This document shows positions 2,754-4,990 of a stretch of DNA of 16,909 nt, piece after piece. Numbering within the stretch: the first letter of the stretch is position 1; each line of letters starts with the position of its first letter. Both the position numbers and the translations under genes were made by a program. The notes below the pieces were generated by a model. The model searched no databases. It had not been told where the DNA came from and saw only the letters and a program-made list of their open reading frames with translations. The stretch comes from a virus: UHGV virus genome UHGV-0043514. One strand, written 5' to 3'.

Positions 2754-3068
2754 TTAATTTATTCGTATGCCTGCTCTTTCTTCATCGAGTTTTTTTAGCT
2801 TGTATCGCATAGCCCTTACTGAATAAATTGAGCGGCAGGTTGCAATTGCTATTTCTTCTGCGGAGAACTTACCGAAAAGTGATACTTCGGCTCTTGTCCA
2901 GCGTCTTCCACGAAGTCGGCTAACAATGTCAGCGCCAATCCTTGTTGCTTTCGCCATTACTGCTTTTTCAGTCCTTTCCAGTTTTTCAGCGATAACTTCA
3001 ACTGGCATTGTCGCCGCCACTTCGCGCAAGAAATCGACTTCCCATTTCTCCCATGGAGTCTTTTTCAT
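2754..3068 (-). CDS. Hypothetical phage protein (104 aa) with two tandem Myb/SANT-like helical repeats
   Basis: Internal duplication [40 protein letters not shown] versus [35 protein letters not shown]; pattern W-T-x-x-E ... EEIA ... R ... A resembles homeodomain-like DNA-binding repeats. Confidence 0.45.
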
Positions 3069-3079
3069 AGGCGATACCG

Positions 3080-3562
3080 TTATTTGATAAGAAGTGAAGG
3101 TTTCCCAACTTTGAGTTGAGCGCCGGGGATATTTATTCCTGCTTTTAGTTGGTGTTTGATTGCCAGTTTGTCGGCTTTAATTGTCGTTTCAAACTCAACG
3201 TATTCAGAAGGAAGGGCGCTTGAGTCGATGATTTCTACAGTTTCTGACGGTTTGCGGATTGTTACCTGGTGAATACCTGCTCGAATCTTTTTCTTGCCAA
3301 CCATTTCAAGCGATGACGCTATATACGCCATAATGCTGTCAATCTTATTTTGAATTACTGCGGCTCGCTCATTCAGTGACTTTGCCTCTTCCTTGAGGCG
3401 TTCGGCATAACCAGATTCATTTTTAATGACGGAAAGAAGTTGCTCTATTTTATCGGTAAATTCTCCTTCCATGCCTTCTATTGTGTCAGCAATCATCTCT
3501 GGTTCTAAATCTGAATCCATCAATTTTGCGTATTCATTGGCAATTTCATACAGTTTGCTCAC
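3080..3562 (-). CDS. Mu Gam-like / Sipho_Gp157-like protein, putative DNA-end-binding host-nuclease inhibitor (160 aa from GTG 3562; track gives TTG 3568)
   Basis: N-terminal coiled coil, C-terminal KKKIRAGIHQVTIRKPSETVEIID...KLAIKHQLKAGINIPGAQLKVG resembles the Mu Gam family pattern; directly downstream of recT; GGAGG 6 nt upstream of the GTG. Confidence 0.5.
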   Translation of the reverse strand: MSKLYEIANEYAKLMDSDLEPEMIADTIEGMEGEFTDKIEQLLSVIKNESGYAERLKEEAKSLNERAAVIQNKIDSIMAYIASSLEMVGKKKIRAGIHQVTIRKPSETVEIIDSSALPSEYVEFETTIKADKLAIKHQLKAGINIPGAQLKVGKPSLLIK

Positions 3563-4448
3563 TGGCAACCTCCAGTTTCGCTTTGCATTCTGCGTAAATG
3601 GCTTGTACGTTCTGCTGCAATTTCATTCCAGATGTCAGGCGATATGCTTCTGCAAAATATCGCTTCAAATCATCCATGTTTTCAGCATGAGCCATTTCAT
3701 CACAAAGAAGTTGTGCTTTTTCCATTATTTCCTGCTGGCGTTTCCGTTCATCTTCGCGGATATCTTCCTCTGATTTGTGCGGCATAACTGGTTCCTGATG
3801 CATACCTTCATCTTCGTTAAGCAGGTGAATGGCATTATCCAGTCGCTGGGCTTTAGGCCAGTATTTGCTGGCGCGTTTAACTATTGTTTTACGTGCCATC
3901 TCTTCCCAGAATGTTTTCCACGGTCCATTCTTTGCCTTGCTCGTTGCTTCCACAGCTTTAATTTCTGCCAGACTCATTTCTTCAGTCAGGTAGTCACCAT
4001 CTGCTGTTTTAACCGTGCAATAACCTCCAACAATAGAGCCTCGCTCACCAAATGCGTTGTATTTGTGGGTTGGTGCTGAATCAAGGCCATTTGATTCATA
4101 GGTGTCGTTTGAGTACACCAGTTTGCATTGCCCCCACTTAATTGATCCTGTCGATTGCGCAAGATGAAGTAATCCCATGTAACTGATATCAAGGCACACC
4201 ATGCCGTCGCGAGGAACCAGATAAGCCAGTTTGCTGGCCGGGTTTAAGGTGATGCCGATCGCCGCAACATTGATGATGGCGTTCTGTGCGCTGGTTGGAT
4301 TTGCCAGTGCTGTTTTAGCCAGGTAATCGTTTTTCTGGAAATACTGAATTGCAAACTGGCTTTCCTTAGCCCATGTCACCGTCTGTTCAGTCAATGCTCC
4401 GCAGAATAACTGCTCTTGCTGTTTAACGAATTCAACGATATTGCTCAT
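3546..4448 (-). CDS. recT: RecT-family single-strand annealing recombinase (300 aa)
   Basis: Size and sequence character of RecT/Red-beta family proteins (VAAIGITLNPASKLAYLVPRDGMVCLDISYMGL...KTIVKRASKYWP); occupies the bet position of the pL operon. Confidence 0.8.
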   Translation of the reverse strand: MSNIVEFVKQQEQLFCGALTEQTVTWAKESQFAIQYFQKNDYLAKTALANPTSAQNAIINVAAIGITLNPASKLAYLVPRDGMVCLDISYMGLLHLAQSTGSIKWGQCKLVYSNDTYESNGLDSAPTHKYNAFGERGSIVGGYCTVKTADGDYLTEEMSLAEIKAVEATSKAKNGPWKTFWEEMARKTIVKRASKYWPKAQRLDNAIHLLNEDEGMHQEPVMPHKSEEDIREDERKRQQEIMEKAQLLCDEMAHAENMDDLKRYFAEAYRLTSGMKLQQNVQAIYAECKAKLEVASEQTV

Positions 4449-4756
4449 GCAGCTTCTCCATAAATATGTCTGCGTTTGAATATTGCGAAGGCATATTCAG
4501 CCTTAACTCTTTCGGTTATTGCATCCCAGAACCATTCAGCGGCTTTTTCCTGATAGTTACAGTCATCATCTTCCAGCCAGTCGATAGCGTCCTTAGTGTG
4601 TTCATCTGGTTTATATGAGCGAAGCATTTCGCTTATTGGGTCGCAACGTTTGCAGAGGCGATCAACTTCACTGTTGATTCGTTCGTAATCTTCATCAGTA
4701 AAACTTGCGATTATTTGCGATATTTCACGCTTATCATTCAGAGTCAGAATCATCAT
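4445..4756 (-). CDS. Hypothetical acidic protein (103 aa) at the position lambda uses for gam
   Basis: Strong AGGAG Shine-Dalgarno upstream of the ATG ATG start; stop overlaps the recT start as ATGA; Cys-containing (CKRCD, DDDCNY), Asp/Glu-rich; no family recognised. Confidence 0.55.
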   Translation of the reverse strand: MMILTLNDKREISQIIASFTDEDYERINSEVDRLCKRCDPISEMLRSYKPDEHTKDAIDWLEDDDCNYQEKAAEWFWDAITERVKAEYAFAIFKRRHIYGEAA

Positions 4757-4841
4757 CTTTCTCCTGTTCTTTGTGCTGATTGAGCATTTTGTTCATCTGA
4801 CGAATGAATTCTTCGTCTGACCAGTTATCTGTAAAACTCAT
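4725..4841 (-). CDS. Possible very small ORF (38 aa) overlapping the start of the 103-aa gene
   Basis: ATG 4841 overlaps the stop of the Kil-like ORF as ATGA; MSFTDNWSDEEFIRQMNKMLNQHKEQEKDDDSDSE; weak Shine-Dalgarno; may be non-coding. Confidence 0.2.
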
Positions 4842-4990
4842 TTCCTGCGATACCACGGAAGATTGATAGCTGATTTCATCGCTTTATTTGCTTCAAGCCA
4901 CATTTTTGAATCACCAATAAATCTGGCTATTACTGCTTTGTTTTGTGCAGCACGAAGCATCTGGTGATTAATGGCTATTTCATTGCGCAT
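4838..4990 (-). CDS. kil: Kil-like small protein (50 aa), possible host cell-division inhibitor
   Basis: MRNEIAINHQMLRAAQNKAVIARFIGDSKMWLEANKAMKSAINLPWYRRK; the FIGD-x-KM segment and the size and position (between cIII and the recombination genes, overlapping cIII) match my recollection of lambda Kil; not in the supplied ORF track. Confidence 0.45.
   Translation of the reverse strand: MRNEIAINHQMLRAAQNKAVIARFIGDSKMWLEANKAMKSAINLPWYRRK

Follow-up and report, generated by a model that had tools for sequence, protein, structure and literature searches.

A nuclease-free RecT-Gp157 recombination module of an Escherichia coli lambda-like prophage, headed by a putative divergent relative of lambda Gam

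The viral sequence UHGV-0043514 (16,909 nt; the whole of this stretch is referred to here as the window) contains a compact cluster of genes, all located on the minus strand. The first gene of a trio is an acidic ORF of 103 amino acids (p103, 4445-4756), which is followed by the gene of a 300-aa single-strand annealing protein of the RecT family (3546-4448; type SAP-4 of Zheng et al.) and by that of a 160-aa Siphovirus Gp157 family protein (3080-3562; "MuGam-type" in Zheng et al. 2025). All three ORFs were found at these positions, and the genes overlap or abut: the stop codon of p103 overlaps the start of RecT (ATGA), and the 3' end of RecT overlaps the start of Gp157 (a GTG codon preceded by GGAGG) by 17 nt. 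These junctions indicate that translation of the three genes is coupled. A fourth member of the module, p104 (2754-3068, minus strand), had been missed in the preliminary description of this region. Moreover, an ORF of 40 codons (4734-4856, minus strand; phrog_17766 at 7.6e-16) is placed between kil and p103. Transcription of the module starts at pL and proceeds leftward through cIII and kil before reaching it; the module is built of three swappable cassettes.

These genes form the homologous-recombination module of a lambda-like E. coli prophage of an ordinary kind. This module is common to phages HK140, mEpX1, Kapi1, Gally and Louie, and is present in approximately 5% of complete E. coli genomes (about 290 genomes); p103, RecT, Gp157 and p104 occurred together in 79 of 80 IMG/VR loci. 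HK140 carries the same module, with a p103 that is 100% identical to that of the window and a region that is 93% identical in DNA. In the survey by Zheng, Casjens et al. (2025; PMC12315714), the HK140 module is described as lacking both nuclease and SSB and as consisting of RecT (SAP-4) and an anti-RecBCD protein of the "MuGam" type. A nuclease-free module composed of RecT and a MuGam-type protein is therefore already known, as catalogued for HK140 in that survey.

The presence of RecT, proposed from the sequence alone, was confirmed by matches above the cut-offs of both PF03837 (2.6e-33; 115.7 bits, cut-off 24) and TIGR00616 (76.7 bits, cut-off 52.65), and as a member of this family the protein would anneal single-stranded DNA. 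It can be separated into a core (residues 1-215) and a C-terminal tail (residues about 216-300; nt 3549-3803), and shares 57% identity with phi80 Rec across 228 aa. The proposal that no RecE/Exo-like nuclease is encoded also held: neither the 20 ORFs examined with Pfam nor the further ORFs compared with PHROGs contained a YqaJ/lambda-Exo, RecE or DUF3799 domain, and the only nuclease-type matches in the window (RusA and YbcO) are both situated in the distant nin region. The module lacks the adjacent Exo/YqaJ or RecE/DUF3799 gene that defines Red/RecET-type systems and that sister modules do carry. It has the composition of the nuclease-free P22 class, in which an annealing protein is accompanied by an anti-RecBCD-type protein but by neither nuclease nor SSB, and this is also the class to which the HK140-type module belongs by function. 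Chi sites are absent from the window, a count that is uninformative with 0.26 expected per strand.

The coiled-coil protein encoded downstream of RecT is a genuine member of the Gp157 family. It matches PF05565 (Sipho_Gp157) over the whole profile (positions 1-162 of 162; E 1.6e-36, 126.2 bits, cut-off 28.6), as do all 33 of its 33 aligned relatives. The protein had been called "Mu Gam / Gp157-like", and only the latter half of this label is now well founded: Mu Gam is not an established link, the score against PF07352 (Phage_Mu_Gam) being 15.8 bits (E 0.014) for a cut-off of 28.3, with weak matches in 10 of the 33 family members (best E 1.1e-3). It also matches phrog_253, annotated as "Mu Gam-like end protection" (1.8e-53). 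Comparison of Gp157 with a Mu Gam alignment from IMG/VR loci, limited by the shallowness of the latter (Neff of the Gam, GamL and Mu Gam alignments 1.3-2.6), gave a non-significant hhalign probability of about 1% or less, and in an HMM test against shuffled sequences there was a small shift, not clearly above the shuffles. The AF2 monomer (pLDDT 82) shows a helix at residues 21-88 followed by beta strands that form a small beta domain. A Foldseek search of the PDB with this model found nothing, searching solved-structure sequences with the Gp157 profile produced chance-level matches only, and the only functional statement found in the literature was an old "phage resistance" label. As judged from these comparisons, kinship to Mu Gam appears weak.

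The position of the Gp157 gene is more informative. It directly follows RecT in all seven sampled contexts (7/7), the RecT-Gp157 arrangement is kept by Gp157 relatives down to 59% identity, and its place is that of Exo, YqaJ or RecE, the exonuclease partner of RecT, in sister modules. The RecT tail is 48-93% identical among RecTs preceding Gp157, but only 16% identical to that of phi80 RecT, whose downstream neighbour is Exo, and it co-varies with Gp157, independently of which Gam type lies upstream. Since the tail travels with Gp157, this pattern suggests that the two proteins are partners, with the tail of RecT matched to Gp157, although the co-variation could also reflect mere physical linkage of adjacent DNA. 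The C-terminal domain of Red-beta is likewise matched to its partner, lambda Exo (PMC6393309). Taking into account both position and the matching tail, Gp157 is most likely the physical partner of RecT.

The product of p104 has a pI of 10 and contains a duplicated helix-turn-helix-like unit. It belongs to the family phrog_323 (2.8e-20), which is also matched by P22 Abc1 (1.3e-23) and Mu gp9 (5.2e-29). BLASTP related p104 to Mu gp9 (5e-5) and found nothing for P22 Abc1, so the link to the latter is only through the shared phrog_323 and Mu gp9. We consider p104 to be a basic Abc1-like / Mu-gp9-like accessory protein that would bind DNA, and that would constitute the third cassette. The corresponding Abc1-like gene of HK140 is not discussed in the available part of PMC12315714.

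The protein at the head of the module had been portrayed as an acidic, Cys-containing product in the gam position. Acidity and position were both borne out: p103 has a pI of 4.65 and a net charge of -9, and Gam or GamL is found at this place in sister modules. As regards the cysteines, three are present, but they are not conserved, all three positions being substituted in many members of the wider family alignment (A4), in which there are no invariant columns. The start used by family members is the second ATG, which makes a length of 102 aa probable for the window protein. GamS (98 aa, pI 4.63) has the identical charge of -9; the size and charge of p103 also resemble those of GamL, and acidity is family-wide. 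Thus, p103 shares with the lambda Gam family the character of a small acidic protein heading a recombination module.

Profile searches did not place p103 in any characterized family. It had no match in Pfam or NCBIfam, and falls into phrog_3486, a PHROG without assigned function. PF06064 gave no match at E <= 10 and was absent among the 25 families listed for 35 members of the p103 family (12 further families, each with a single member, fell outside this list), so that p103 is not a Gam-family protein by profile. GamL (PF28165, among the results listed, and NF033500) did not match it either: BLASTP against phi80 GamL gave an E of 0.1, and there was no NCBIfam GamL match, whereas phi80 GamL itself scores 4e-44. 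Alignment comparisons with hhalign, made with shallow alignments (Neff 1.3-2.6), yielded non-significant probabilities of 8-16% for lambda Gam and 0.6-6% for GamL. A local motif shared with Gam did emerge: the p103 family HMM gives lambda-Gam-family sequences 11.4-12.6 bits, a score reached by 1-12 of 10,000 shuffles (empirical p about 1e-4 to 1e-3), and the motif is aligned in register (HMM 47-87 versus GamS 50-90). Solved-structure sequences searched with the p103 profile gave chance-level matches only. Pattern searches with the diverse alignment A4 found no distant p103 loci, no stretch being conserved enough, and those with a narrower alignment recovered near-identical E. coli loci only. 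Two groups of candidates were discarded, namely P22 Abc2 and Abc1, for which BLASTP gave nothing meaningful, and saposin-repeat proteins, which were matched by a narrow p103 profile, probably by chance.

The predicted structure of p103 (monomer model) is all-helical, and the PDB protein that it resembles best is lambda GamS (PF06064; PDB 2UUZ, 2UV1, 5MBV), a dimeric, DNA-mimicking inhibitor of RecBCD. On this monomer model p103 was scored as having the GamS fold, with Foldseek E-values for GamS that are not significant, and the structural alignment contains about 15% identity. Two shorter helices of the model would correspond to the one long protruding N-terminal helix of Gam. Fold searches revealed no similarity to mimics of the Ocr or ArdA type. 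The profile and structure searches that had been proposed for this locus thus relate the 3080-3562 protein to Gp157, and leave p103 with no Pfam match and with GamS as its nearest PDB neighbour.

Further evidence comes from the genomic context of p103 relatives (25-50% identity), which lead a recombination module wherever the context could be read, be it RecT-YqaJ, RecT-Exo, DUF3799-RecT, ExoVIII or RecT-Gp157. Upstream of RecT-Gp157 the same slot is occupied by p103 in the window and in loci L090 and L262, by lambda Gam in Dewey and L257, and by GamL in L255 and L261; p103 alternates with Gam and GamL, and co-occurrence was never seen. In Dewey the whole segment corresponding to 4451-4834 of the window is replaced, with the swap boundary exactly at the start codon of RecT. 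SEN22 is 98% identical to the window over 4445-4841 and encodes a p103 that is 96% identical, yet it has no RecT: ExoVIII and a 189-aa protein stand in place of RecT and Gp157, swapped as a unit. The occurrence of p103 without RecT speaks for an action on the host and against one specific to RecT. In the available part of PMC12315714, the MuGam-type protein alone is counted as the anti-RecBCD protein of HK140, and SEN22, a carrier of p103, is listed with none. Thus, p103 seems not to have been recognized there.

Taken together, size and charge, the in-register motif, the position at the head of modules, the alternation in one slot and the GamS match make it probable that p103 is related, though very distantly, to lambda Gam. 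We read it as belonging to a third lineage, by sequence, of predicted RecBCD inhibitors with the Gam fold, apparently unrecorded so far. The earlier guess of a possible host-nuclease inhibitor has thus been strengthened by the PDB match to GamS and by the use of the same slot by Gam and GamL, and the activity itself is putative. According to PMC12315714, Gam and GamL differ in sequence and have similar folds. Phage phi80 therefore offers a precedent for strong sequence divergence among inhibitors of the Gam fold: its GamL (PF28165, NF033500) agrees with p103 in size and charge, and lies in the same slot, upstream of a related RecT with a 57% identical core. The two differ in that hhalign detects a relationship to lambda Gam for GamL (87%) and not for p103, and in that phi80 GamL is annotated as needing a Mog/Agt antitoxin gene, with nothing similar beside p103.

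Small helical bundles commonly look alike, and the resemblance to GamS might be of this generic kind, with p103 acting as a recombination cofactor that aids the annealing protein or nuclease of its module, as P22 Arf does for Erf. This would agree with the constant adjacency of p103 to recombination genes, with the non-significant profile comparisons with Gam and GamL, and with the fact that Zheng et al., in the available part of their paper, did not count p103 as anti-RecBCD. We regard it as unlikely, since a partner-specific cofactor is not expected to be combined with partners as varied and unrelated as RecT, YqaJ/Exo, DUF3799/RecE and Gp157, or to persist without RecT in SEN22; the alternation with Gam and GamL in one slot, never together, and the position of GamS as the single best PDB match also oppose it. 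Very unlikely, in our opinion, is a DNA mimic or anti-defence protein whose target is not RecBCD but another host system, e.g. a retron, Gabija or a restriction enzyme. The p103 family is strongly acidic throughout, accessory genes of the early left operon are often anti-defence genes, and phage end-binding and RecBCD-related proteins interact with Gabija (PMC12407980), but strict linkage to recombination modules and alternation with Gam/GamL point to the target of Gam, and the lack of Ocr- or ArdA-type similarity in fold searches is also unfavourable.

The nature of Gp157 is a separate matter, compatible with the Gam-like reading of p103. Gp157 may be another kind of RecT partner (a loader, a scaffold or an SSB-interacting adaptor), its "Mu Gam-like" label being a product of coiled-coil bias, which we consider possible though on balance somewhat unlikely. 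The PF07352 score lies well under the cut-off and is equalled by coiled-coil families, neither hhalign nor the shuffle control speaks for Mu Gam, Mu Gam belongs to a separate PHROG (phrog_491), and a second pure anti-RecBCD protein would be redundant where Gp157 stands, as it often does, beside a dedicated Gam-type inhibitor. Against this, the weak Pfam alignment spans positions 28-147 of the 149 of PF07352, Pfam and hhalign put the C-terminal beta region in register alike, both proteins have a helix of roughly 70 residues followed by a small beta domain (from the Gp157 model and a reading of the Mu Gam sequence), and Mu gam and Gp157 each adjoin a phrog_323 gene; PHROG curators and Zheng et al. 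also class Gp157 as MuGam-type. That the module is a decayed RecET or Red system, nonfunctional and deprived of its exonuclease, is extremely improbable. A nuclease gene is absent, and sister modules with the same RecT core have Exo (phi80), but the four-gene block is intact in five viable phages (HK140 and the others named above), in all but one of the 80 IMG/VR loci and in the E. coli genomes mentioned, its junctions are tight and coupled, the RecT-Gp157 pair is retained at considerable divergence, and P22-type nuclease-free modules are a recognized functional class (PMC12315714).

We therefore favour, with somewhat better than even confidence, the interpretation that the module combines a divergent Gam-class p103, coupled RecT and Gp157 partners, and an Abc1-like accessory protein; the p103 assignment and the partnership of Gp157 are what we infer here. 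As a putative member of the structural class of lambda Gam, p103 would most likely bind RecBCD like Gam, at the site of DNA entry, and such a block would switch off the main linear-DNA nuclease of the host and protect rolling-circle and recombination intermediates. A complete block of RecBCD by p103 would leave the source of the single-stranded DNA used by RecT unexplained; speculatively, it would come from host RecQ/RecJ or from replication forks. Gp157, as a dimeric coiled-coil and possibly Mu-Gam/Ku-like protein, would bind DNA ends and hold or protect them for RecT, without resection. The complete picture of a nuclease-free "protect-and-anneal" machine, in which a Ku/Mu-Gam-like Gp157 docks on the RecT tail in place of an exonuclease and is joined by p103 as a third-lineage Gam-fold protein, is tentative and, taken as a whole, rather unlikely.

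Several known systems share parts of this design. The order of lambda Red (Gam-Bet-Exo) and Rac RecET, i.e. inhibitor, annealing protein, partner, is kept in the window, but their partner is a nuclease and Gp157 has no nuclease domain. Mu Gam (PF07352), a Ku-like binder of double-stranded DNA ends, is like Gp157 in its long N-terminal helix, its small C-terminal beta domain and its phrog_323 neighbour (Mu gp9 and p104, respectively); it acts alone, with no adjacent RecT, whereas Gp157 is always coupled to RecT. The Arf-Erf-Abc1-Abc2 module of P22 likewise lacks a nuclease and has an Abc1-family protein downstream of the annealing-protein cassette. It differs in using Erf instead of RecT and in possessing Abc2, which is absent from the window; P22 redirects RecBCD via Abc2, and the window module is predicted to block it.

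RecBCD inhibitors decide the survival of linear phage DNA, and they are also sensed by several defence systems (retrons Ec48 and Se72, P2 Old, Gabija-related effects). If p103 does represent a third Gam-fold lineage, the catalogue of RecBCD inhibitors grows, lambdoid phages scored as having no anti-RecBCD function, e.g. SEN22, need reclassifying, and recombineering gains a candidate protein for hosts in which lambda Gam performs poorly. If the protect-and-anneal scheme is true, the lambdoid "MuGam-type" proteins would be functional counterparts of Exo/RecE and not redundant anti-RecBCD factors. The regular occurrence of Gam-type inhibitors beside Gp157 and a matched RecT tail raises the question of what takes the place of the exonuclease in the many nuclease-free RecT modules. 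The 40-codon ORF (4734-4856) moves together with p103 as one cassette, and its product has a 12-residue resemblance to P22 Arf.

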